IMG/VR virus record: IMGVR_UViG_3300033388_005055
Coordinates: 1-50,440 of that record
DNA from: a virus
Lineage: Duplodnaviria; Caudoviricetes
Strand: one strand, 5' to 3'
Length of the DNA: 50,440 nucleotides
Below are positions 2,547 to 48,409 of this stretch, piece after piece. The position numbers and the translations under genes were made by a program. The notes under the pieces were generated by a model. That model saw only the letters and a program-made list of their open reading frames with translations. It was not told the origin of the DNA and made no database searches. How positions within the stretch are numbered: the first letter of the stretch is position 1; the number at the start of each line of letters is the position of its first letter.

Positions 2547-2889
2547 AATCCAACAACTTAAGTTTCTCGATCGCTTCATTAATATCATCAACAGCTTTTC
2601 TATACTGATCAATATAAATCTGATATTCTTCTGGAGTGATTAACTTAACCGTTTTCCTGAAATATTGTCCCCAGGCTTTTAACCTGAAAACATCAATCAT
2701 CAATAAATATTCATTGACTGTGATCGGGTCCACATCTTCTAATTGAGACGGCTCCGGCATTGGTGATATTGTCGGCGGTTCTGGATCTACATAAATAATA
2801 ACCGGATCTGAAACACAACTAACTATACTAATTAGACTGATAAATATCACGGACACGAGTAGAAATCTTTTTAAGTTCTTTTTTAACAC
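2545..2889 (-). CDS. Putative o-spanin (lipoprotein)
   Basis: Signal peptide ending SIVS-C, Pro-rich mature part, overlaps the 3' end of the i-spanin candidate. Confidence 0.65.
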   Translation of the reverse strand: MLKKNLKRFLLVSVIFISLISIVSCVSDPVIIYVDPEPPTISPMPEPSQLEDVDPITVNEYLLMIDVFRLKAWGQYFRKTVKLITPEEYQIYIDQYRKAVDDINEAIEKLKLLD

Positions 2890-3157
2890 TCTGTTTTCCC
2901 CTTGCTTTTTCTAAGATATCAACTGAATCATTCATTTTTTTGACAATCTCATTATCTTCAGATTGAAATTGTAACATAGATTCAACCTGCTGTCGTTTTT
3001 CCTGGGATCTGCGGATCTCGTTAGCTAGTGCGATCTGTTCTGCTTTAAGATCTTCTTCGAGAGTTTCTATTTTTTTCTTTTTAAAATAGTTGATAGCTAC
3101 CTGTATTCCGTTGGTGACAATTCCAAGAATGATAGAAATTATTAGGGCTTGGATCAT
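2828..3157 (-). CDS. Putative i-spanin
   Basis: N-terminal TM helix plus coiled coil, in the lysis cassette. Confidence 0.65.
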   Translation of the reverse strand: MIQALIISIILGIVTNGIQVAINYFKKKKIETLEEDLKAEQIALANEIRRSQEKRQQVESMLQFQSEDNEIVKKMNDSVDILEKARGKQSVKKELKKISTRVRDIYQSN

Positions 3158-8449: not shown

Positions 8450-8480
8450 AAAAAAGCTCCCTTAATTGGGAGCCTTTTTT
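8450..8480. terminator. Bidirectional intrinsic terminator
   Basis: A6-GCTCCC-ttaatt-GGGAGC-C-T6 between converging operons. Confidence 0.85.
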
Positions 8481-34601: not shown

Positions 34602-36146
34602 TCAAGCTCCCGCCAACCTAATCAACAGATTTCGAGCTATCAACTCATAAGCTGAAGCATGGAACAAATGATCCGGGCCGGTCTCGACCCATACATATTC
34701 ATTTCGTTTTTCATCATAGATTCTGGTGCTGGCCATCATATGATCATAATACTCGGGGATCTCTTTCGCATTTTTCGGGAGGAGTGTCTTTCTAAGTAGT
34801 ATTGATTCTTTCACATTGTCCAATGCTGAAGTACGATCCACTGTGATGGTCTTCTCTTCCATGTTCACCCGGTCTTCTTTCCCCCGACCATAGAAACAGC
34901 GGAATAATCCCGGATGTTTGGCGCAAAGCCTTTTTGACATCCTGGTTTCCGGGAGAGCGTCTATCACTCCGGCGACTATATTGTATCGCTCAAATAATTG
35001 ATTGACTTCCTCTTCAGACTGAACCGAACCGATAAACCTGGTTCGAAGTTCTCCAGAATCAGTCAAGCTAGAAATCTTTACATGAATCATTGTTCCAACG
35101 TCGAGCCCGGCAACACAAGCGGAATCAGTATAAAATTCATCAGTGAAGAAATCATTCACGCATCTGGAAAGCGCGGTCTCTGAAATGTTCGCACCTTCAG
35201 CCGTATATGGGAGACCGAAGTCAGCATTATAAACACGTTGCATGGTTGTGTCATTCATTAGACCTTTGTTGAATCTGTCGACGATTTCTCTCAAAGTAAC
35301 TTTTGTTGTAAACAATTTATTGATCTGCAGCCCGGTTCTCTTGTCCTTGAAAGTCGGTGCCCATAGACCATCACCCCTTCTATGTACTGGTTTCCCGCAT
35401 TGGTCACAGATAAGATTTATATCTCTGTCAGAATCCCAGTCATAGTCCTCATCCCGGATGACATATTCCTTTTCATCAACTTGTCTGAGTAAATGCTTGA
35501 ACGGGTCTGGTTGAATATAGTGCCCGCAATCGGCTTTTATATTCCATAAGGTCTGAGAAGATTCAAGCCAGTCAAGATGTATTCCGTATTTTAAAATAGT
35601 CGGGTTGGAAACATTCCAGTATCTCCGGTCGTCTGAGTTGGAAATTCTCTCGACTGCCATTTCGATGTTATCCTGATCACACTCGTTTTTCTCATCGATG
35701 ATATATACATCGGCGGGGAATTCAGTGAACCCTGCAGTTGAGTTGGAACCGACGAAAGCAATCGAACCATTTTTAATTATCTTCAGGGATACAGCATCAG
35801 ACCCCTTTATTGTTGAATCTCTCACTAGAGTTCTGTAGTAATCTGAATATTCAACTGATTTATTAAACCTGTTTTTTACGAATCTATTCCTGAGATTCTC
35901 ATCAGGGAGAACATGGAACACCTGTTTTCCTGAAGATGCAAGGGCAAAATCAAGAACAGACAACCATTCTGATAATCCCGACTGTGTTGACTTCATGATA
36001 TCTTTCCCGGACTCATCGAGATATATTTCCTTTTGATAAGGATAATTGACAAAATCCAACATCTGGTTTTTATGGGTTTTGTGGAATTTTGAGGCAATCC
36101 AGAATATATGATGATTATCGTGAAGGTATTTTTCTTGCTTGGTCAT
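34602..36146 (-). CDS. terL: Terminase large subunit (GpA-like ATPase plus RNase H-like nuclease)
   Basis: MKSTQSGLSE (Walker A variant), YIIDE (Walker B), SNPT, GLDVG, PDHLFHA. Confidence 0.9.
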   Translation of the reverse strand: MTKQEKYLHDNHHIFWIASKFHKTHKNQMLDFVNYPYQKEIYLDESGKDIMKSTQSGLSEWLSVLDFALASSGKQVFHVLPDENLRNRFVKNRFNKSVEYSDYYRTLVRDSTIKGSDAVSLKIIKNGSIAFVGSNSTAGFTEFPADVYIIDEKNECDQDNIEMAVERISNSDDRRYWNVSNPTILKYGIHLDWLESSQTLWNIKADCGHYIQPDPFKHLLRQVDEKEYVIRDEDYDWDSDRDINLICDQCGKPVHRRGDGLWAPTFKDKRTGLQINKLFTTKVTLREIVDRFNKGLMNDTTMQRVYNADFGLPYTAEGANISETALSRCVNDFFTDEFYTDSACVAGLDVGTMIHVKISSLTDSGELRTRFIGSVQSEEEVNQLFERYNIVAGVIDALPETRMSKRLCAKHPGLFRCFYGRGKEDRVNMEEKTITVDRTSALDNVKESILLRKTLLPKNAKEIPEYYDHMMASTRIYDEKRNEYVWVETGPDHLFHASAYELIARNLLIRLAGA

Positions 36147-36340
36147 ATGATAAAAGATCTTTTTATTGGTTTTTCTTTTTTCCCTTCAAGGCTCTGTAAC
36201 AATGTTGCTTGAAGTTCATCAATTCTATCTTTAAGTTTTTCGGTATCTTCCGGAGGAGTCCACCCGAGATCGATAAGAGTTTGTTTAAATTCTGGTACAG
36301 ATAACCATGCATCAAGAGAATCTTTCCATGCTTTATTCAT
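36143..36340 (-). CDS. Hypothetical protein coupled to terL
   Basis: RBS GGGGGG; ATGA overlap with terL. Confidence 0.6.
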   Translation of the reverse strand: MNKAWKDSLDAWLSVPEFKQTLIDLGWTPPEDTEKLKDRIDELQATLLQSLEGKKEKPIKRSFII

Positions 36341-36351
36341 AATATCCCCCC

Positions 36352-36497
36352 AAATAAAAAACCCGACGAAAACACAGGTTGACCGAATAGAAAAATAAAC
36401 GTATAAAGTTTTTTCTATTCACCATATGCTCTCATCGGGAATTATAATCTAATTAAAGATTATTTACGTTTTATAATCAATCAGTGGTCAAACTGAT
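36352..36497 (-). ncRNA. Candidate structured cis-regulatory/antisense RNA ending in a terminator
   Basis: 15-bp stem with 4 G.U pairs plus an 11-bp stem, GGUCA bulge and U tract; an upstream hairpin exposes the complementary UUGACC loop. Confidence 0.65.
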
Positions 36498-36518
36498 AAC
36501 ATAATCATAGTCTATTCT

Positions 36519-36983
36519 CTATTCGTTTTCAAGATTAGGAAATACACTGAGAAGATTATTCTTGAATTTCTCATTATCCTCTTCGCTCAATTCAATCCCT
36601 GCGATTCCAAGATGTCCGGAAATTTCCTTTTTATCAGCTACTTTGAATCCGGCTCGATCTAATAGGGAATTGATATTATTCAGTTTCCCATATTTGACAT
36701 CATCAGCAAACGCTTTGACGAACGCCCGGAGTAACATTGGTTTAGTTTTATCTTTACCTATCTCCATTAATTCAGTTTCGGTTTTATCGAATACCATTTT
36801 AATCAGATTTCTTACATCTGCAGCAGAGAGGTCAGACTCTATAGCGAACGCTTTTATCTTCGATTTCTTCCGACCTACTTTCCCTGGGTCTGGTTGATAA
36901 TCTTTCGAGAACTGATTACTCGGATGAGGATTCCCGCCGATTTTCCCCGAGTTTGATTCTGTCCCGTCTTTTTTCAATGCCAT
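36519..36983 (-). CDS. terS: Putative terminase small subunit
   Basis: NQFSKDYQPDPGKVGRKKS..LLDRAG..KKEISG; position upstream of terL. Confidence 0.65.
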   Translation of the reverse strand: MALKKDGTESNSGKIGGNPHPSNQFSKDYQPDPGKVGRKKSKIKAFAIESDLSAADVRNLIKMVFDKTETELMEIGKDKTKPMLLRAFVKAFADDVKYGKLNNINSLLDRAGFKVADKKEISGHLGIAGIELSEEDNEKFKNNLLSVFPNLENE

Positions 36984-37126
36984 AACTTACCTCTAAAATA
37001 TTTCGCTCGAAGTCGGTCGAGTTCTTGTGCTTCCTGAACCTCTTTTTGCAGTATAGCGCTTCTTTGCTGGACTCGCTTTTCCTGTCCGGCTTTTTTACTC
37101 TTTCTATCTTTTCCGCTTGCTGCCAT
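36974..37126 (-). CDS. Small basic protein (50 aa, not in ORF track)
   Basis: MAASGKDRKSKKAGQEKRVQQRSAILQKEVQEAQELDRLRAKYFRGKLWH; RBS GAGGT. Confidence 0.55.
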   Translation of the reverse strand: MAASGKDRKSKKAGQEKRVQQRSAILQKEVQEAQELDRLRAKYFRGKLWH

Positions 37127-37128
37127 AT

Positions 37129-37956
37129 CTACACCTCATAATCAATAGTCTTGTACCGGTCGATCATGGTACGTTGATATTCATAATTGAAATCATACAA
37201 ATCCGGACTTTCTTCAATCATAAGCTGCTCAACGTTCCCGGAGCTCCGAAGATTTGCAGAACCATGTATCACTATCTTCTCCCCTGAGTATAACTCTATT
37301 AGGGCTATTTTACAATGAGACCGACAAACCACCAACTGAAACCGGTTGTCTTTGTCGAGTTCCTGGTATAGATACGGGACAAGGTTATGTTTTTCGTGAG
37401 AGTAAAAATATGTAGAGATAAGAAGATTTAATTTATCACAGTATCCACCGTTCATAACGTTGGCCAGTGAATCGATATTATTCTCATTCATGGATAATGT
37501 AGAAATCGTTAAGGTTTTTACCCTGTAATCTTTCCCCACGATAAGTGCTTCGATGAAATCTCCGAAATAGAATTTTCCATTTACAAAAACATAATGTCGG
37601 GACCCGAGAGTAATCTCGATATCATCAGCGAGTTTTTTAGCCTTCGAGTATTGGAGAAATTCTTCTTTAATATCCGGTTCTATCTTCGGTTTCATATACC
37701 TGGTATCCAACCCTTCCCCGAAATCAAAATCCATATTAAAATCATCCATATCCAGTTCCATATTGAAATCGAAGGAATCAGAATTAGATAATGAGAGATG
37801 GATATTCTCTAATCTTTTGACTGAAGTTTTACCGGGAGGATTATCTCCCTTTTCCCATTTACGGAAAGTGGAGACGGAGAAATTATATTTCTCACAAAAT
37901 TCTTTCTGGTTTAGCCCGGTTTTATTTCTGGTCGCGATTATCTGTTCGGGTGTCAT
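37129..37956 (-). CDS. XRE HTH fused to a PLD-superfamily (HxK) nuclease-like domain
   Basis: N-terminal TRNKTGLNQKEFC..STFRKWEKG; C-terminal SHCKIALIE..IHGSANLRSSGNVEQ. Confidence 0.75.
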   Translation of the reverse strand: MTPEQIIATRNKTGLNQKEFCEKYNFSVSTFRKWEKGDNPPGKTSVKRLENIHLSLSNSDSFDFNMELDMDDFNMDFDFGEGLDTRYMKPKIEPDIKEEFLQYSKAKKLADDIEITLGSRHYVFVNGKFYFGDFIEALIVGKDYRVKTLTISTLSMNENNIDSLANVMNGGYCDKLNLLISTYFYSHEKHNLVPYLYQELDKDNRFQLVVCRSHCKIALIELYSGEKIVIHGSANLRSSGNVEQLMIEESPDLYDFNYEYQRTMIDRYKTIDYEV

Positions 37957-39256: not shown

Positions 39257-39319
39257 ATTATACTTCCCATATGGTAACTAGTCAACCATATTCAAAGAAA
39301 TAACGAAAAGATATGGTAA
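39257..39319 (-). promoter_or_regulatory. Strong sigma70 promoter with an inverted-repeat operator candidate
   Basis: TTGACT(39285)-17-TATAAT(39262); ATATGGT(39269)/ACCATAT(39285) inverted repeat; extra ATATGGTAA at 39311. Confidence 0.8.
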
Positions 39320-42665: not shown

Positions 42666-43385
42666 ATGAGTATTCAATTAAAGAGTACTAAAGACGTTCA
42701 CATGAATGGCGCTAAAGTGCTTGTTTATGGTGCGTCTGGATCGGGGAAGACTACCCTGATTAAAACATTACCGAATCCGGTGATACTGTCGGCTGAGTCG
42801 GGGCTATTGTCTTTATCTGATGAAGAGATCCCTTTTATAGAGATCGGGACAATAGATGATCTATATGAAGCTTATCAGTGGATTACAAGTGATGAGGCAA
42901 CCGGATTTGATTCTGTAGCAATCGACTCAATTTCTGAAATTGCAGAGGTTGTTTTGTCTGCAGAGAAAAAAATCGCTAAAGATCCCCGGCAGGCATACGG
43001 TGCGACTCAGGAAAAATTGACAGATCTTATCAGAGCGTTCCGCGATCTTCCCGGGAAGAATGTTTACATGACTGCAAAACTGGAGAAGGCAACCGACGAA
43101 CAGGGTCGTTTATTGTATTACCCTTCGATGCCTGGAAACAAACTTGGACAAGCTCTTCCTTATTTCTTCGATCATGTGTTCGCAATGAGAGCGGAGAAAG
43201 ATGAAGAGGGGAAAACTCAGAGGTTTCTTCAGACTGAAAATGATGGCCTATGGATGGCGAAGGCTCGCGGGGTTCAGTTAGAAGCTTATGAGCTCCCCGA
43301 CCTTGGCGCGATTATCGGGAAACTGGGAGGTTCTTCAAAGAGCGCTAAAGAGGAAGTACAGAAAGAGGAGGTAATTGATGTCTGA
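42666..43385 (+). CDS. Sak4-like AAA_24 ATPase (ssDNA annealing)
   Basis: LVYGASGSGKTT..VAIDSISE..LPYFFDHV. Confidence 0.85.
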   Translation: MSIQLKSTKDVHMNGAKVLVYGASGSGKTTLIKTLPNPVILSAESGLLSLSDEEIPFIEIGTIDDLYEAYQWITSDEATGFDSVAIDSISEIAEVVLSAEKKIAKDPRQAYGATQEKLTDLIRAFRDLPGKNVYMTAKLEKATDEQGRLLYYPSMPGNKLGQALPYFFDHVFAMRAEKDEEGKTQRFLQTENDGLWMAKARGVQLEAYELPDLGAIIGKLGGSSKSAKEEVQKEEVIDV

Positions 43386-43731
43386 GGGGAATCTATACCA
43401 GAAGTGGATTGACGCGAAAGCAGCGGAGAAACTTTTAACTGATCTGAGAAGGGAAATTGAAGACCAGATCCTCTCTGAAGATCCGGACACAGCGGGATAT
43501 TCTGTTGTAATAACTACCCGTGTTAATAAAAAGATCAATGCTGATCTTCTTCAGGAGCTGGCAACTGAGGCGGGATTGACTGAGCATTTATCGAGTCTTT
43601 TCCGATGGAAACCGGAGATTAATTCCAAAGATTGGAAAGCTGCGGATAAAAGTATTACTGATCCGCTGTTGGATGCAATAACAAGCACTCCGGGACGGGC
43701 ATCGTTTAAGATTGAACGCTTGGAGGTTTGA
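43378..43731 (+). CDS. Conserved hypothetical protein of the Sak4-SSB module
   Basis: WIDAKAAEK..RREIED..LFRWKPEIN..AITSTPGRASF. Confidence 0.7.
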   Translation: MSEGNLYQKWIDAKAAEKLLTDLRREIEDQILSEDPDTAGYSVVITTRVNKKINADLLQELATEAGLTEHLSSLFRWKPEINSKDWKAADKSITDPLLDAITSTPGRASFKIERLEV

Positions 43732-43734
43732 AGG

Positions 43735-44025
43735 GTGAAAAAAATCTATGTATTCATAAATGGAAGTAATTCTATGGGAGTTCATCCTGTTGCATTATGT
43801 GAAGATGGAAATTCTTTAGCTGGACACCTTTGTTCTCATGAAGGGTTTGTTAAACATGATATGGGATTTACTTCAGATTGGAAGCATGAACATTACGATG
43901 AGCATTGTGGAAAAGACAATTGGGAGCTTGAATATATTGAAGATGAAGATATTGAAGCTCATGAGGGATTGCAAAAAGCTATTAAGCTAAATCAAGAATT
44001 ACCAGAAGAGGAGAGTAAAAAATGA
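43735..44025 (+). CDS. Hypothetical His/Cys-rich protein
   Basis: ALCEDG..GHLCSH..HDMG..HEHYDEHC. Confidence 0.65.
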   Translation: MKKIYVFINGSNSMGVHPVALCEDGNSLAGHLCSHEGFVKHDMGFTSDWKHEHYDEHCGKDNWELEYIEDEDIEAHEGLQKAIKLNQELPEEESKK

Positions 44026-44501
44026 ATCTAGGACAAGATATTAATGTAGCAGACATACCAACGGAATCGGCATTCACACCACTGCCGGCTGGATGGTATC
44101 AGGCAAGTATTGAAAGTGTAGAGCTGAAACCTTCGAATGCTGGGACCAGTACTTATATGAATATTAAATATTCAATCCTGGGACCAACTCATCAGGGCAG
44201 AGTGGTTTTCGGAATGTGTGGAGTATCTAACCAGGATGCAGAGAAAGAAAAAACATCCCGGTATTTTCTCGGGCAGCTCATGAGAGCTACCGGCCTACAG
44301 AGATTGACAGACACTGATCAGCTGGTAGGTGCAAATCTTAAGATAAAACTTAAGGTCAGACCTAAAACTGAACAGTACGACGCTCAGAATGAGGTCAAAG
44401 AGTATGAAGCTATTTCGGGAAGTCAATTGCCTAAAGCTGCGGGAAGTGGCCCGGTAGTGGAGAGTGTCCCTGGGAATAATCCTCCATGGGCTAAGAAGTA
44501 A
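44022..44501 (+). CDS. DUF669 family ssDNA-binding protein
   Basis: FTPLPAGWY..HQGRVVF..DTDQLVG..NEVK..PPW. Confidence 0.85.
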   Translation: MNLGQDINVADIPTESAFTPLPAGWYQASIESVELKPSNAGTSTYMNIKYSILGPTHQGRVVFGMCGVSNQDAEKEKTSRYFLGQLMRATGLQRLTDTDQLVGANLKIKLKVRPKTEQYDAQNEVKEYEAISGSQLPKAAGSGPVVESVPGNNPPWAKK

Positions 44502-44628
44502 TAATTTCCCGTATGGGTAAATATAAAAATAAAACAATTTTTTTATGAAAATGTAGTAGTAGGATTAAAAAATAAAAGGAGGTAATGTTTTCAGGATGTC
44601 GGCAGACTCGATGCAAGCAATGTATATC

Positions 44629-44664
44629 AATCAGGAGTGCCCTAATAACACACTCCTGGTTATT
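44629..44664 (+). other. Hairpin immediately 5' of the tRNA-like gene
   Basis: AATCAGGAGTG-11-CACTCCTGGTT then ATTT. Confidence 0.55.
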
Positions 44665-44665
44665 T

Positions 44666-44767
44666 GATCAGGTGGCGCAATTGGTAGCCCTTTGGGGCGA
44701 ACGCACTATGTACCAAACATAGGTTGGTTATCGGTATATCATGCAGGTTCGAGTCCTGCCCTGATCA
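44666..44767 (+). tRNA. Atypical tRNA-like gene (class II/Leu-type body, CCA in the anticodon position, D-loop insertion)
   Basis: Acceptor GATCAGG/CCTGATC plus A; D arm GCG..TTGGTAG..CGC; anticodon arm CTATG-TACCAAA-CATAG; 20-nt variable arm; T arm GCAGG-TTCGAGT-CCTGC. Confidence 0.75.
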
Positions 44768-44796
44768 TATCAAATAATTTTAAGGAGATTATTTTT

Positions 44797-45204
44797 ATGA
44801 ATGAAAATGCATATAGGTCGTGGTGTAAACATCCTGAAAGTGATTCTGAATGGTTCGAATACTTTACGGCTGTAAATGGGATTGAAGATCAAGATCCGTT
44901 GGTTGAGATCGGAAGTCTTGAGCAATATATTAACCGGAAAGATAAAAATGGATCTTATCTTTTTAAGGGAGATATCCTGATAAAAGAATCCGATCATAAA
45001 ATAAGAATTTCCGATGGTGAAAAAATGCCTCAATATTCTTATGAAAAAATAGTAATAGGAGAAGAAAGAGGTTGTTTTACTTATTCGATAATTGAACAGG
45101 AAAACTCTTATTTTGCTGAATTACCATCTAAACCGGAATCAATATGGCATTTGGATTTGTCTCTTTATACACGAATCGGAACTATTCACGAGGTTTCAAA
45201 ATGA
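44797..45204 (+). CDS. YopX-like protein, copy 1
   Basis: EQYINRKDKNG..FKGDIL..IGTIHE; RBS AAGGAG. Confidence 0.75.
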   Translation: MNENAYRSWCKHPESDSEWFEYFTAVNGIEDQDPLVEIGSLEQYINRKDKNGSYLFKGDILIKESDHKIRISDGEKMPQYSYEKIVIGEERGCFTYSIIEQENSYFAELPSKPESIWHLDLSLYTRIGTIHEVSK

Positions 45205-46352
45205 AACTAGAAACCCCAATAGACAATTCAATATCTTCCCTTATCGATAAATACCACGAATCAAAACCAGAACAGCCCAGACCGCACATGGGTGTCTCCC
45301 TTATCGGTAATGAATGTGAACGCTACTTATGGTTAAATTTCAGGTGGAGCGCAGCTCCCGAATTCCCTGGAAGAATATTAAGACTTTTCCGTCGGGGACA
45401 TCTCGAAGAGAATCAGATAATACTCGATCTAAAAAACATCGGAATTCAAGTTACTGATCAACAGAAGAGAGTCAATTTCAATTCTCATGTATCGGGATCC
45501 ATTGATGGTATCATAAAGGGTGGTATCCCCGAAGCTCCAAATACAGAACATCTTCTTGAAATGAAAACCTATAATGATAAGCGGTTTAATACCCTTAAAT
45601 CCAAGGGGGTCGAAAAATCCGATCCGACATATTTTATTCAGTGCCAGGTTTATATGGATGGACTCGGGATAAAAAGAGCTCTGTTTTATGCAGTTAATAA
45701 AAATACTGATGAGATTTACACTGAGAGAATCAAACTGGATAAAGAAGTCTCCAAAAAATATATTGACCGAGCTAAAAGAATCGCTCTTTCGGATAGAATG
45801 CCTCATCCATTATCAACTGATCCGACATTTTTTAAATGCCGACTCTGCTCTAAGAATTGTCAAGATTTTTGTCATAAGACAAATAAAACAAAAAATGTGA
45901 ACTGTCGGACTTGTGCTCATTCTACAGCATTGGGAAATAATACATTTTACTGTGAATTGCATGAAGGTAGTATCCCTTTAGAATACCAGCATGAAGGATG
46001 TCGATCTCACGTGCTGCATTTTGATCTTATTCCATGGGCTGTCAGTGAGGAAGATAGTACAGAAAAAACAGCTTGTTTTATTATAGATGGGAAAAATGTT
46101 CTTAATGGTGAAGAGGGCTTTAGCAGCCTGGAAGTTCTTGAAGGGAAAATTGGTCTGGTTAAATCTGTATTTGAAGGTGCCGAAGTAAAAAGCACTCCCG
46201 AGGGGAAAAGAAGGGAAGAAATAGGAGCGGAGAAAAAAGAAAAATCTGAACCCGTAAAAGAACCAGAACAATTAAATCTTATTGATGATGCATTCAAGAA
46301 GGTGATATCAAAAGAAATTTTAGACCTTTCTAAAGATTTGGAGATTTATTGA
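45201..46352 (+). CDS. Cas4-like PD-(D/E)xK exonuclease with Cys clusters
   Basis: CERYLW..SGSIDG..LLEMKT..QCQVYM..CRLC..C..CRTC. Confidence 0.85.
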   Translation: MKLETPIDNSISSLIDKYHESKPEQPRPHMGVSLIGNECERYLWLNFRWSAAPEFPGRILRLFRRGHLEENQIILDLKNIGIQVTDQQKRVNFNSHVSGSIDGIIKGGIPEAPNTEHLLEMKTYNDKRFNTLKSKGVEKSDPTYFIQCQVYMDGLGIKRALFYAVNKNTDEIYTERIKLDKEVSKKYIDRAKRIALSDRMPHPLSTDPTFFKCRLCSKNCQDFCHKTNKTKNVNCRTCAHSTALGNNTFYCELHEGSIPLEYQHEGCRSHVLHFDLIPWAVSEEDSTEKTACFIIDGKNVLNGEEGFSSLEVLEGKIGLVKSVFEGAEVKSTPEGKRREEIGAEKKEKSEPVKEPEQLNLIDDAFKKVISKEILDLSKDLEIY

Positions 46353-46353
46353 T

Positions 46354-46755
46354 ATGAAAGAAAATGCATATAGATCATGGTGTAAACATCCTGAAAGCGA
46401 TAGTGAATGGTTTGAATACTTTACAGCTATTGAAGGGATTGATAATCTAGATCCTTTGGTAGAAGTAGGTCTCTCCGAACAGTATATTAATCGAAAAGAT
46501 AAAGATGGAACACATCTTTTCGAAGGTGATATTTTATTAAAAGAATCAGACTATAAAATAAGAATTTCAGATGGTGAAAAAATACCTCAATATTCTTATG
46601 AAAAAATAGTAATAGATTCAGAAAAAGGATGTATTTCTTATTCAATAATTGAACAGGAAAACTCTTATTTTGGGGAATTACCTTCTAAGCCTTGTTCTAT
46701 TTGGCATTTGGATTTATCTCTTTTTACTCTTATTGGTAATATTCATGAAACCTAG
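46354..46755 (+). CDS. YopX-like protein, copy 2
   Basis: Gap-free alignment to copy 1 with 27 differences in 133 aa (hand count). Confidence 0.8.
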   Translation: MKENAYRSWCKHPESDSEWFEYFTAIEGIDNLDPLVEVGLSEQYINRKDKDGTHLFEGDILLKESDYKIRISDGEKIPQYSYEKIVIDSEKGCISYSIIEQENSYFGELPSKPCSIWHLDLSLFTLIGNIHET

Positions 46756-48409
46756 ATATTACCAGACTAATGCTGTTAATGAATTATATGAATGGATAAG
46801 ACAGAATAAAGGGGGGAACCCTGTTTTAAATCTCCCTGGTGGAGCTGGAAAGTCTGTTATAATTGCCATGATTTCAAGTGATGCAATAAAGAATTTTCCA
46901 GATATAAGAATATTAATGTTAGTCCATTCTAAAGAATTGGTTTCTCAGAATGCAGAAAAATTAAAACTGGTTTATCCTGATGCTCCTTTAGGTATTTATA
47001 GTGCCAGTCTTAAAAAGAGAGAAATAGGAAAACCGATTCTTTATGCCGGGATTCAATCTGTAAGAAATAGAGCTGTTGAAATTGGTCACATAGATATCTG
47101 TATGATCGATGAAGTGCATTCCGTTAATGATAAAGAAACCGGTGGATATAGAAAATTATTGAGTGCTCTTTCTTTAATAAATCCAGACATGAGAATAATA
47201 GGGCTCTCGGCTTCTCCCTATCGAATGGGATCCGGTCTAATTACTGAAGGTGATACAGCTTTATTCAGTGATATTATTGATCCTATAACCGTTGAAGAAC
47301 TCATGAATGATGGTTATTTATGTAAGCTTAAAAGTAAACATACAAAAGAGAGAATTTCTACTGAAGGGTTGCATCGTCGAGATGGAGATTATATCAAAAA
47401 AGAACTTGCTGAGAAAATAGACATTGAAGATTCTAACCGATCAGTAGTAAGGGAAATGATTTCTTATTCTGAAGGTCGTGAAAGCGTTTTAGTATATTGT
47501 GTCAGCATAGACCACGCTTTACACATAACTGAGTTTTTGAAAGAATTTGGAGAAATCGCCGATTATGTAACTTCAAAAGATACTGACACAATTAGAGATA
47601 ATAAGATTATTGATTTTAAAGAGAAGAAAATAAGGTTTCTATGTAACGTGGGGATTTTAACCACCGGGTTTGATTTCGCTGGAATCGATTGTATTGCAAT
47701 GATCAGACCGACCGCCTCTCCGGGTTTGTATTCTCAAATTTGCTTTCGAGGGACCCGACCTATTTATGCTGATGGTTTTGATTTAGAAACAAAAGAGGGT
47801 AGATTGTCCGCTATTGCTGCCAGTGTAAAACCTGAATGTCTTGTTTTAGATTTTTGTGGAAACGTTGAAGTTCACGGCCCGATTACCGATGTCCGGATCC
47901 CTGGAAGAAAATCAGATGAACCGGGAATACCACCGTCAAAGATTTGTCCTGAATGTGATTCTATTGTTGCAGCTCAATGCCGGGTTTGTCCTGATTGCGG
48001 GAATGTCTTCGATATCCAGAAACAATTAAAAGAATGGAAACTCCACCATGATGATATAATGGGATTACTACCTAAAGAATTAGAGGTTGGAAGCTGGTCA
48101 TGGTCAAAACAGGTATCAAAAAAAAGCGGAATAGAAATGTTGATGGTAAAATATTACGGGACCGCGATCAGTGACAATCCTATTTCTGAATATCTGTGTG
48201 TTATGCATTCCGGATATGCTGGACACCGGGGAATGGAGACTTTAAGAATTATTGCAAAAGAGTCCGGGGTTGATATTATGAAGTATGGGAATCTTGAGGA
48301 ATTGTGTGTTGCTATGACTGCGAGCTGTAAACCGGACATGATAGAATATAAGAAAGATGGCCGATATGATCGGATTGTGAATAGAGCATGGTCGGAGATC
48401 CCGTTTTAA
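46745..48409 (+). CDS. SF2 DEAD/DEAH helicase with Zn finger (RadD/YejH-like)
   Basis: LPGGAGKS, IDEVH, GLSASPYR, LTTGFD, RGTR, CPEC..CPDC. Confidence 0.9.
   Translation: MKPRYYQTNAVNELYEWIRQNKGGNPVLNLPGGAGKSVIIAMISSDAIKNFPDIRILMLVHSKELVSQNAEKLKLVYPDAPLGIYSASLKKREIGKPILYAGIQSVRNRAVEIGHIDICMIDEVHSVNDKETGGYRKLLSALSLINPDMRIIGLSASPYRMGSGLITEGDTALFSDIIDPITVEELMNDGYLCKLKSKHTKERISTEGLHRRDGDYIKKELAEKIDIEDSNRSVVREMISYSEGRESVLVYCVSIDHALHITEFLKEFGEIADYVTSKDTDTIRDNKIIDFKEKKIRFLCNVGILTTGFDFAGIDCIAMIRPTASPGLYSQICFRGTRPIYADGFDLETKEGRLSAIAASVKPECLVLDFCGNVEVHGPITDVRIPGRKSDEPGIPPSKICPECDSIVAAQCRVCPDCGNVFDIQKQLKEWKLHHDDIMGLLPKELEVGSWSWSKQVSKKSGIEMLMVKYYGTAISDNPISEYLCVMHSGYAGHRGMETLRIIAKESGVDIMKYGNLEELCVAMTASCKPDMIEYKKDGRYDRIVNRAWSEIPF

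Follow-up and report, generated by a model that had tools for sequence, protein, structure and literature searches.

A conserved leader and terminator between the putative terminase genes of a marine phage: a candidate gate on late transcription

The window analysed here is a whole stretch of 50,440 bp from an uncultivated marine phage. Between a putative small terminase gene and the large terminase gene it holds a conserved, non-coding island of 149 nt (36350-36498, minus strand), which is found again in contigs of public runs and is present once in the genome. We propose that this element is an RNA-level module in which a 58-nt leader is joined to a long intrinsic terminator under read-through control, similar to lambda PR'-tR', and we give this reading a probability of roughly 0.45. 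The element probably acts as a gate on late gene transcription. The observations on which we build are its fold, its strand bias, its rank among the hairpins of the genome, its position, its near-perfect conservation, its sharp borders and its absence from distant relatives.

How phages time their late genes is understood for no more than a few models. What is new here is a sharply bounded, near-invariant non-coding module at the boundary of early and late genes, with no counterpart among described RNA families. Should the leader indeed set read-through, the element would be a compact and testable case of late-gene gating beyond those of the lambdoid, Gram-positive and GTA systems; it would also mean that a transcriptional gate can stand between the putative TerS and TerL, with a bearing on the packaging ratio of the two.

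Position and fold of the element

The minus-strand genes upstream of the element encode a primase/helicase, a resolvase-like protein, an HTH protein of 275 aa and the putative TerS, whereas those downstream encode TerL and the portal, within about 28 kb of late genes. The element therefore stands at the early/late boundary, at which genes for replication and regulation give way to those for packaging and structure, and this position fits a gate on the late genes.

The gene directly upstream (36519-36983, minus strand) encodes a protein of 154 aa that matches phrog_15125, a family of unknown function. No Pfam family is found in it at E<=0.01, its closest Atlas clusters bear DUF5681, and its profile matches to small terminases in the PDB are weak (E 0.36 and 0.78). 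Over the C-terminal 34 aa it shares 41% identity with an Sf6_terminase-like protein of 160 aa that occupies the same position in the nearest complete relative (locus L003), and its AlphaFold2 model, built on an alignment of 11 sequences, is poor (pLDDT 52.9). By these resemblances the gene is a probable TerS.

On the other side, the ribosome-binding site that follows the element (SD GGGGGG, 36351-36346) belongs to an ORF of 65 aa (36143-36340, minus strand) and not to terL, as the preliminary description had supposed; terL (ATGACC, 36146) starts about 200 nt further on. Its product is a large terminase of the gpA type (34602-36146, minus strand; 514 aa), which matches PF05876 (E 4.5e-13) and phrog_675 (E 4e-70). 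The stop codon of the 65-aa ORF overlaps the terL start (ATGA), and the ORF is predicted to be translationally coupled to TerL. L003 has an ORF of 86 aa in this place, and the two ORFs have an LGWTPP motif in common (E 6e-7). The terL start had also been said to contain a complement to the bulge of the terminator hairpin described below; the complement is present, only 5 nt long, but it lies 200 nt away and beyond another ORF.

The largest part of the element is a hairpin of 78 nt (36362-36439, minus strand). Its minimum-energy fold comprises 29 pairs: a 15-bp basal stem is followed by one unpaired U, by a GGU/ACC helix and by an upper part with a 5-nt bulge on the 3' side (GGUCA), an 11-bp stem and an apical loop of 14 nt. 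The base of the hairpin is G+C-rich (CCCG.../...CGGG), and directly 3' of it the sequence holds the U-tract UUUUUUAUUU (36352-36361), the minus-strand motif TTTTTTATTT being located at 36361-36352. A stable hairpin, a G+C-rich base and a U-tract on the transcribed strand together make up the sequence pattern of an intrinsic terminator. Four of the 29 pairs, all in the basal stem, are G.U, and the predicted energy is -32.6 kcal/mol on the minus strand versus -17.8 kcal/mol on the plus strand. Both the hairpin and its G.U-dependent strand specificity had been described beforehand, with the unpaired U left unmentioned, and all 13 of the motifs named at that time are found on the minus strand where they had been placed.

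The same asymmetry is seen when the 178-nt gap is folded as a whole. The minus strand reaches -47.8 kcal/mol (z = -4.0), and none of 200 shuffled sequences is as stable, while the plus strand reaches -29.4 kcal/mol (z = -2.9). This bias in fold energy fits an RNA that is transcribed in the direction of the genes. When both strands of the 50.4-kb genome are scanned, the terminator hairpin is the strongest hairpin-plus-T-run (-33.3); apart from it, the minus strand has clean stem-plus-T-run terminators only at 8454 and 7787, at and beyond the end of the gene array. A standard terminator scan, with its loop limit of 3-8, missed the hairpin because of the 14-nt loop. Neither tandem repeats nor tRNA or tmRNA genes were found. 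A frame of 30 aa (36425-36333) was rejected as a gene, as it starts within the hairpin, has no SD and crosses the conserved border.

The terminator hairpin is preceded by the 58-nt leader, which carries two weak hairpins of about -4 kcal/mol each. Hairpin 1 (36480-36497; AUCAGU-[UUGACC]-ACUGAU, 6 bp, -4.1 kcal/mol) exposes a loop with a mean probability of being unpaired of 0.93. Hairpin 2 (36444-36463; AUAAUCU-[UUAAUU]-AGAUUAU, -3.9 kcal/mol) has arms at 36463-36457 and 36450-36444, joined by seven A-U or U-A pairs. Between the two lies the linker motif AAACGUA (36465-36471).

A consensus scan also finds a sigma-70-like match, TTGAAA-17-TATGAT (10 of 12 positions; 36504-36532, minus strand), within the 3' end of the 154-aa gene, whose predicted start near 36497 falls on the 5' edge of the element. 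Such sites are not in excess, since the scan found 16 of them versus 17.1 in shuffled sequences. At the other end, only about 11 nt separate the U-tract from the SD of the next ATG, too few to hold a promoter downstream of the terminator.

Under our preferred reading, RNA polymerase would arrive from upstream, or start at the promoter-like site, and would stop at the U-tract. Termination would yield either transcripts that end after TerS or a short RNA some 140 nt long, or the two together, and the approximately 28 kb of late genes would be transcribed only upon read-through of the terminator. The conserved leader would be the part that sets or regulates read-through, whether by binding a phage or host factor (as nut or qut do), by acting on the polymerase itself (as put does), or through contacts between loops. 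From the features above we infer termination itself, the regulation of read-through and the identity of the regulator. Among the 16 ORFs of the window that were scanned, none is recognisable as an antiterminator, be it Q, N or another. Two genes upstream of the element there is a very basic ORF of 50 aa (37126-36974), an N-like candidate on purely speculative grounds.

Conservation, borders and distribution

Conservation was assessed in contigs of four public DNA-type runs (X1-X4), a sample drawn from only two studies. The X3 contig spans the element with differences that are not partitionable, and the scoring rests on X1, X2 and X4. In these three, the matches extend over 36350-36498 (X1), 36350-36496 (X2) and 36350-36499 (X4), with one differing letter each, that is, one difference per 147-150 nt. 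The flanks, in comparison, differ at 180 of 1141 positions in X1, 74 of 514 in X2, 105 of 718 in X3 and 46 of 415 in X4 (11-16%), or have been replaced, and the excess conservation of the element over its flanks has P between 2e-10 and 4e-7. The single difference is a T>C change at 36443 (plus strand), present in all four runs. It is the sole variable position in the three scorable contigs, A in the window and G in the relatives, and it lies in the linker that joins hairpin 2 to the terminator, with a probability of being unpaired of 0.52.

This conservation is not confined to the terminator. The 58-nt leader taken alone has one change, against 11-16% in the flanks (P 6e-4 to 9e-3); it is kept as strictly as the terminator. 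The earlier suggestion that the element is more than a plain terminator is borne out in this respect.

The borders of the island are equally well defined. All four runs show a break in the sequence at 36496-36499, and of the two borders 36350 falls at the end of the U-tract, while 36496-36499 falls where hairpin 1 begins and where the promoter-like site has its predicted +1. Beyond them, X4 has 154 unlike letters on one side and 78 on the other, and X2 has 79 nt in place of 32 and 319 in place of 100. The flanking pieces closest to the element are less diverged (5/56, 3/49 and 8/98) than the distant ones.

In L003, whose genome is complete and whose TerL is 71% identical, the homologous flanking genes overlap and the gap is zero; the element is absent from five related records, four of which are at least 90% complete. 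Since the element is near-invariant in the contigs of the runs and the nearest complete relative has no gap at all, its sequence marks it as a discrete, lineage-specific module, as far as these comparisons reach.

Searches of wider collections agree with this. Neither TerL nor the 154-aa protein, used singly as a query against IMG/VR, returned any relative, and blastn in its 'distant' mode found no match to positions 36100-37000 among 50,697 phage records. The loci used for comparison were 74 from a TerL alignment of 29 sequences and two from genomes; the closest protein relatives are on Logan/ENA contigs, namely the TerL proteins P0002 and P0003 (90% and 87% identical) and the homologues P0121-P0127 of the 154-aa protein (72-92%). 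Against loci L002-L082, blastn-short with the element gave only chance matches to hairpin 1 and short matches. The 18-mer of hairpin 1 occurs in five stretches of IMG/VR, all unrelated coding DNA, and the 26-mer of the 3' arm in none. In JGI metagenomes, a 26-base pattern of hairpin 2 and the basal stem has no match, and a pattern of the upper stem and bulge has eight, none of them element-like and five of them one common coding-like stretch. A hairpin of -15 kcal/mol or better with a T-run lies within 1.5 kb upstream of TerL at 16 of 64 loci, and is lacking at the other 48. Canonical terminators that are not homologous to ours stand directly ahead of the packaging genes in some relatives, L004, L016 and L052 among them.

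The near-identity of every base, loops and linkers included, exceeds what RNA structure usually needs, and it could instead reflect a recent spread by recombination. The element would in that case be a plain long terminator at a mosaic junction, its 149 nt kept alike by recent homologous exchange, or a linker cassette for the swapping of modules, for which the PeSL cassettes offer a precedent in the portions of PMC4122927 and PMC2839356 that deal with them. The abruptness with which unlike sequence begins outside the borders (in X4 and X2), the adjoining small ORFs that differ, the genes between TerS and TerL that vary among relatives, and the lower divergence of the nearest flanks, as is expected around an exchange point, all suit this explanation. 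We nonetheless consider it unlikely, because the element has a single copy in the genome whereas PeSLs have many, and because at least three variants of the flanks accompany an identical element with the same single change, so that exchanges would have had to recur at the same two borders. Nor is there a copy in any other context: the IMG/VR 26-mer and the JGI 26-base pattern have no matches, and the other two patterns have chance matches only. Were exchange the cause, the element would mark a preferred exchange point between the terminase genes, which would matter for the shuffling of packaging modules.

The borders also bear on whether the element is a gene for a stand-alone small RNA, that is, an ORF-less 'moron' inserted after terS, with a promoter, an RNA of about 140 nt and a terminator, whose product acts in trans on RNAs or proteins of the host or the phage. 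A promoter-like +1 at the 5' border and a terminator at the 3' border would delimit such a gene, the element is inserted when compared with L003, RNAs that have to match a partner are typically conserved base by base, and a small RNA of Stx phages made at PR' provides a precedent, as outlined in the relevant part of PMC7547250. But the promoter-like site is not kept in the relatives, where X3 has indels at 36506, 36522 and 36527 and X2 has the replacement of 32 nt noted above. Comparing the leader, the apical loop and the bulge with both strands of the phage genome yields no convincing target beyond the trivial self-antisense match, as the best non-self duplexes (-27.7, -14.3 and -17.4 kcal/mol) involve the strand opposite to the local ORFs. 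The element moreover has the sense orientation within a long co-directional array, where transcription would be expected to read into it regardless. A trans-acting RNA gene is, for these reasons, quite unlikely in our estimation.

Complementarity between leader and terminator

Two short segments of the leader are complementary to two segments of the terminator hairpin. The hairpin-1 loop UUGACC can pair with the bulge motif GGUCA(A) (36379-36384; duplex -6.4 kcal/mol), and the linker motif AAACGUA with the apical-loop motif UACGUUU (36397-36403; duplex -4.8 kcal/mol). All four segments are predicted to be mostly unpaired (0.70-0.93): the mean probability is 0.91 for the linker motif, 0.70 for the apical-loop motif and 0.81 for the bulge motif. 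The last A of GGTCAA, which the six-base pairing requires, is itself predicted to be paired in the GGU/ACC helix, with a probability of being unpaired of 0.28. Both complementarities, which had been reported in the preliminary description, exist, although the full bulge pairing has this obstacle.

In order to assess how often such matches arise by chance, the upstream 79 nt were shuffled 5000 times with dinucleotides preserved, a test devised post hoc, after the observation. An apical-loop match of at least 7 nt appears in 7.8% of the shuffles, a bulge match of at least 6 nt in 4.1%, and both jointly in 0.3%; by this post hoc measure the two together are non-random. In the 50,440 bases there are just two occurrences of the composite pattern TTGACC-N8-24-AAACGT, which both lie within the element, in inverted orientation; 0.06 occurrences are expected by chance, and none of 100 shuffles has two. 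TTGACC alone is not enriched in the genome (18 found versus 23.5 expected).

These pairings are the basis of a further explanation, in which a doubly pseudoknotted switch or attenuator for TerL alters the efficiency of the terminator through UUGACC:GGUCA(A) and AAACGUA:UACGUUU. The rarity of the joint matches and the confinement of the composite motif to the element speak for it, as do the conservation of the leader, which carries the upstream partners, and the geometry of the contacts, which are nested and antiparallel, match in spacing (20 and 19 nt) and span a single turn of helix, the 11 bp of the upper stem. Yet the duplexes are short and weak, the shuffle statistics are post hoc, and nothing in the element points to a ligand or trigger. 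A sequence this invariant offers no covariation, its sole difference (36443) falling in an unpaired linker; and the pairings are purely Watson-Crick, so that a DNA inverted repeat explains them equally well. A nested fold with both pairings enforced has -26.6 kcal/mol, versus -43.0 kcal/mol for the preferred fold. In this model the loop pairings, if they form, would supplement the terminator fold rather than compete with it, and so would not be a classical antiterminator. Of the original proposal of a structured element gating terL, the strand-specific fold with a terminator ahead of terL stands, and the switch by loop pairing lacks support from covariation. We regard the pseudoknotted switch as doubtful, and rank it after the stand-alone RNA gene.

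The same contacts could serve a different purpose. The element may encode a phage RNA of about 145 nt, doubly pseudoknotted or assembled hand in hand into a multimer like the pRNA of phi29, that docks onto RNA polymerase, so that read-through is self-acting, or onto the terminase/portal motor; docking would then account for conservation at the level of single nucleotides. We see in this only an outside chance. If true, it would mean a new class of cis-acting riboregulator of late genes, or a packaging-associated RNA in a phage with a gpA-type terminase.

Because the same complementarity is equally readable as an inverted repeat in DNA, we must also weigh a site that acts at the DNA level, in which the inverted copies of TTGACC-N12-14-AAACGTA and the 18-bp palindrome are bound by a protein such as TerS (as a cos- or pac-type site) or the HTH regulator; in a variant, the repeats would be convergent promoter-like sites, with TTGACC-17-TATAAA on the plus strand. 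Terminases of the gpA type are those of cos phages. The bipartite motif, found twice in inverted orientation and nowhere else in the genome, adjoins the terminase genes, and conservation of all positions fits a DNA site contacted by several proteins. Against this, the element has features of an RNA that exist on one strand only, namely the four G.U pairs and the U-tract, and the genome holds no more copies of the palindrome ATCAGT-N6-ACTGAT than chance would give (4 matches with at most two mismatches, versus 3.15 expected). The putative TerS has diverged, with 72-92% identity in seven relatives (coverage at least 88%) and 52% and 79% in two partial ones, and in part of its gene the DNA divergence exceeds 20%; the binding site of TerS would be expected to drift as well. 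As for convergent promoters, TATAAA lacks the near-invariant final T of the -10 hexamer. Among the explanations considered, we hold a DNA-level site to be the least probable.

Comparison with known systems

A search of Rfam 15 was taken to cover RNAs of the P1 C4 and P4 CI kind, put, pRNA and riboswitches. At gathering scores it gives no match anywhere in the window; with covariance models run over 35900-37000 at E<=10, the only hits are snoZ7 (E 7.6) and U6 (E 0.63), both at chance level and outside the element. No family matches the element, and hence it does not match the P1 C4 and P4 CI kind, with which an analogy had been drawn. The likeness lies in two short unpaired segments that complement two others in the same transcript. 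The element, however, lies outside any immunity operon, between the putative terS and terL, and its complementary partners are located within the element, in the terminator's own loops, instead of in a downstream leader or ribosome-binding site. The analogy is thus not upheld.

In the lambda nut/N system and in HK022 put, small hairpins of the nascent RNA, located between promoter and terminator, render the polymerase resistant to terminators. Our element shares the small hairpins upstream of a terminator, but Rfam detects no similarity to boxA/boxB or put, and the hairpins are weak (about -4 kcal/mol). The processing hairpins for RNase III of the T7 type are long and intergenic, with two stems parted by an asymmetric bulge on the 3' side. 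The element resembles them in its two stems, its asymmetric 3' bulge and its intergenic place, and differs in that a U-tract follows its hairpin.

The PeSLs of T4-type phages are cassettes of a terminator and a promoter, in the sections of PMC4122927 and PMC2839356 that describe them. As far as those sections go, they share with the element a conserved stem-loop combined with a promoter-like site, sharp borders and variable small ORFs on the flanks; the element differs in being single-copy rather than multi-copy, in being longer, in its extra leader, and in belonging to a phage that is not T4-type.

Cases in which a processive antiterminator carries transcription past a terminator that heads a late or packaging cluster are on record, in the pertinent passages of PMC11150451 and PMC7547250. 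In the Caulobacter GTA, the terminator terGTA lies 3' of the first gene of the cluster and is bypassed by GafZ, according to the portion of PMC11150451 devoted to it. By that account, both systems place a strong terminator within a packaging and structural cluster, right after its first gene, whereas terGTA consists of three G+C-rich direct repeats of 150 bp and our element of one A+T-rich hairpin with a conserved leader.

In lambda, PR' is followed by qut and tR', the terminated product is the 6S RNA (StxS in Stx phages), and Q brings about read-through. In Stx phages, transcription from the late promoter PR' that terminates shortly after it gives a regulatory small RNA, as the corresponding part of PMC7547250 relates. 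The differences from this module are that no Q-family gene is recognised, the upstream 154-aa protein resembling DUF5681 proteins and small terminases; that the element follows a putative terS rather than preceding the lysis and packaging genes; and that it has neither sequence nor Rfam similarity to PR'-tR'. The likeness lies in the short leader and strong terminator ahead of the late genes, in the promoter-like site at the 5' edge (a consensus match, not conserved in relatives), and in the default product, which would be a short RNA, with some 28 kb of late genes dependent on read-through. By analogy, then, the design of the element resembles both lambda PR'-tR' and the GafZ/terGTA arrangement of Caulobacter.

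Genomic setting of the non-coding module

Between a 154-aa gene and a 65-aa ORF on the minus strand lies a 149-nt element (36350-36498), consisting of a 58-nt leader, a 78-nt hairpin and a U-tract. We conclude that this non-coding module, which lies where the early genes meet the late ones in an uncultivated phage lineage, is real and strand-specific, has sharp borders and shows remarkable conservation. The window is a complete 50,440-bp IMG/VR virus record with direct terminal repeats (114 bp) and a G+C content of 32-41% in 2-kb windows. Searches of the entire window found no tRNA and, at gathering scores, no Rfam family; the Rfam check of the element, as the preliminary description had proposed, matched no family.

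The element is embedded in a co-directional minus-strand array that extends from about 42401 to 8479. The array starts with a primase/helicase gene (42401-40362), followed by genes for a resolvase-like protein (39765-39403) and a 275-aa HTH protein (37956-37129), a 50-aa basic ORF (37126-36974), the 154-aa ORF (36983-36519), which putatively encodes the small terminase, a 178-nt gap (36518-36341) containing the element, the 65-aa ORF (36340-36143), the gene for a gpA-type large terminase, TerL (36146-34602; PF05876, E 4.5e-13; phrog_675, E 4e-70), and the portal gene (33693-32119). The gene that follows the element is not terL, as had been supposed, but the 65-aa ORF; the stop of this ORF and the ATGACC with which terL begins overlap as ATGA. 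On the plus strand, a divergent block (42666-48409) has PHROG matches to a Sak4-like annealing protein, an SSB-like protein, a Cas4-domain exonuclease and a helicase, which together make up a recombination/replication module.

That the 154-aa gene encodes the small terminase, which the preliminary description took for granted, is suggested by weak profile matches and by a C-terminal likeness. The protein has no Pfam match at E<=0.01 and matches phrog_15125, itself without known function; the ESM Atlas clusters nearest to it carry DUF5681, and one homologue (P0124) is 76% identical. A profile of 11 homologues finds two PDB small terminases, weakly (E 0.36 and 0.78). Over its final 34 residues, the 154-aa protein shares 41% identity with the C-terminus of a protein of 160 aa at the same position in the relative L003, and that protein of L003 has a sub-threshold match to Sf6_terminase (E 0.0024).

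Conservation of the element as a bounded unit

Five public sequencing runs, from two studies, contain a small share of the sequence words of 35800-37200; four are labelled marine metagenome and the fifth is unlabelled. We aligned contigs of four of these runs (X1 to X4) at >=80% likeness; these are contigs rather than reads, and those of co-occurring strains may share collapsed segments. A single letter differs within the element in X1 (36350-36498), X2 (36350-36496) and X4 (36350-36499), and the change is identical in all three: at 36443 the plus strand has C in place of T, an A-to-G change in the linker after hairpin 2 (36463-36444). The X3 piece (36358-36584) has 14 other letters, counted over element and flank together, and four indels, all of them outside the element (36499, 36506, 36522 and 36527).

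The flanks, by the pieces listed, differ at 180 of 1141 positions in X1, 74 of 514 in X2, 105 of 718 in X3 and 46 of 415 in X4, many of the differences being spaced by three bases, like codon third positions. Some segments are replaced whole (319 nt stand in place of 100, and 79 in place of 32), and another, of 192 nt, has the same length but has diverged. At these flank rates, which are underestimates because pieces below 80% likeness were left out, the probability of at most one change is 2e-10 to 4e-7 for the element and 6e-4 to 9e-3 for the 58-nt leader alone. Apart from its copy in the window, the same element occurs with at least three variants of the flanks. Similarity breaks off at 36496-36499 in all four runs and at 36350 in three, the points at which hairpin 1 begins and the U-tract ends.

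Conservation as a bounded unit leaves two explanations: strong selection on an RNA (or RNA and DNA) function, or the recent spread of a cassette by recombination. A recombination linker would be comparable to the reported PeSL cassettes (PMC4122927; PMC2839356); unlike PeSLs, however, the element has a single copy per genome, and we consider a linker rather unlikely. Conservation is as strict in the leader as in the terminator, which speaks against a terminator that is long by accident. We favor, with a probability of roughly 0.45, a functional transcriptional gate, in which transcription would by default terminate at the element, the late genes would be expressed by read-through, and the leader would set or regulate that read-through. 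To judge from the sequence, termination is a well-founded reading; that the leader regulates read-through is inferred from its conservation.

Fold and loop complementarity

Every motif named in the preliminary description is present at its position, and the 78-nt hairpin (36439-36362) folds as depicted there, with 29 pairs, four of them G.U, at -32.6 kcal/mol, as against merely -17.8 kcal/mol on the complementary strand. The 178-nt gap has a z of -4.0 on the minus strand, where none of 200 shuffles folds as well, and of -2.9 on the plus strand. The hairpin is followed at once by UUUUUUAUUU, then by GGGGGG and the ATG of the 65-aa ORF. Within the hairpin, the plus strand carries a promoter-like TTGACC-17 nt-TATAAA (36379-36407), directed antisense into the 154-aa gene; its -10 lacks the usual final T, so our promoter scan did not list it.

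An RNA switch had been proposed in which the UUGACC loop of hairpin 1 (36497-36480) pairs with the GGUCAA bulge, and the AAACGUA linker with UACGUUU in the apical loop. Holding the terminator fixed and dinucleotide-shuffling the upstream 79 nt 5000 times, we found an apical-loop complement of at least 7 nt in 7.8% of shuffles, a bulge complement of at least 6 nt in 4.1%, and both jointly in 0.3%. The composite TTGACC-N8-24-AAACGT has two copies in the genome (0.06 expected), both in the element and in inverted orientation. Both tests were framed post hoc and are therefore indicative only. All four pairing segments are predicted to be mostly unpaired (0.70-0.93); the pairings are weak (-6.4 and -4.8 kcal/mol), and a fold enforcing both as nested helices reaches -26.6 kcal/mol, versus -43.0 for the terminator fold. 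If they form, the pairings would be pseudoknots that decorate the terminator without competing with it. A loop-loop switch may exist as a special case of the transcriptional gate, although we regard that version as very unlikely, and the analogy drawn with P1 C4 and P4 CI RNA fails on location and target geometry. Both pairings are purely Watson-Crick and are therefore accounted for just as well by an inverted repeat in the DNA; that the element is a protein site at the DNA level seems to us highly improbable.

Transcription map, relatives and known systems

Among hairpins with a T-run after them, sought on both strands, that of the element ranks first (-33.3), and the only other clean stem-plus-T-run terminators on the minus strand, at 8454 and 7787, lie at or beyond the array's end. 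The element therefore divides the array in two: replication, regulation and the putative small terminase on one side, and about 28 kb of packaging, structure and the rest on the other. The terminator at the array's end (8454-8474; GGCTCCC...GGGAGCC) is canonical and bidirectional, each strand having a T-run.

The stretch from the U-tract to the following RBS is too short to hold a promoter. A sigma-70-like match, TTGAAA-17-TATGAT (36532-36504, minus strand, 10/12), would put its +1 near 36497, where hairpin 1 begins, as a stand-alone sRNA gene might have it; such matches are no commoner in the region than in shuffles (16 found, 17.1 expected), and we think such a gene quite unlikely. A near-consensus sigma-70-type match, TTGACT-17-TATAAT (11/12), lies within the early genes (39257-39285, minus strand).

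TerL has 215 metagenomic homologues at E<=1e-10. From a 29-sequence TerL alignment we took 74 IMG/VR loci and two from genome bins (labelled Spirochaetota and Clostridia). L003 (a complete 53-kb record; TerL 71% identical), the nearest of the retrievable relatives, has homologues of both genes flanking the element; these overlap each other and thus leave neither gap nor hairpin. L041 (42% identical) likewise has no gap, and the 149-nt element was absent from all five related records searched, four of them at least 90% complete. Among the 64 loci with enough sequence upstream of TerL, 16 show, in the 1.5 kb ahead of TerL, a T-run preceded by a hairpin of <=-15 kcal/mol, and 48 do not; in L004, L016 and L052, canonical short terminators stand just ahead of the ORF(s) preceding TerL. 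Thus, a terminator at the head of the packaging genes recurs non-homologously, but the element itself is lineage-specific.

The genes between the TerS-like gene and TerL also vary: where the window has its 65-aa ORF, L003 has an 86-aa Cys-rich ORF, sharing an LGWTPP motif with it, and a 63-aa ORF (2560-3004), and L041 has a 208-aa ORF, J-domain-like by eye (HPD motif), and a 100-aa ORF (2027-2977). This interval is a hot spot of small-gene turnover. Two TerL homologues, P0086 and P0093 (881 and 895 aa), have intein/LAGLIDADG Pfam domains (PF14528, PF14890), so the large terminase of some relatives is interrupted by an intein. In L053 (about 2080-2180), short direct repeats (TATGGCTATGGT-type units) form an array beside a terminator-like hairpin, upstream of the packaging genes; this array could be an iteron, pac or cos-type site.

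No Q-family protein is recognizable upstream of the element. The 50-aa ORF (36974-37126, minus strand) is very basic, with an N-terminal K/R-rich stretch and then a predicted helix; it is preceded by a good SD (GAGGTG), fits closely between its neighbours, the HTH gene and the 154-aa gene, and has no family match except phrog_4481 (E 0.042). Its small size, its richness in R/K and its place just ahead of a hairpin with terminator make it a speculative candidate for an N-like protein.

A literature search, conducted mostly outside the subscription journals, agrees with the preliminary description in finding no conserved leader-plus-terminator module between terS and terL; it gave RinA-type activators, which act at promoters upstream of terS, and a gene transfer agent (GTA). 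In the Caulobacter GTA cluster, GafZ lets transcription pass a strong terminator that follows the first gene (PMC11150451); the short RNA made at lambda PR'-tR' is reported to serve as a regulatory sRNA in Stx phages (PMC7547250). The transcriptional gate would follow the same logic as both systems, with default termination and late read-through.
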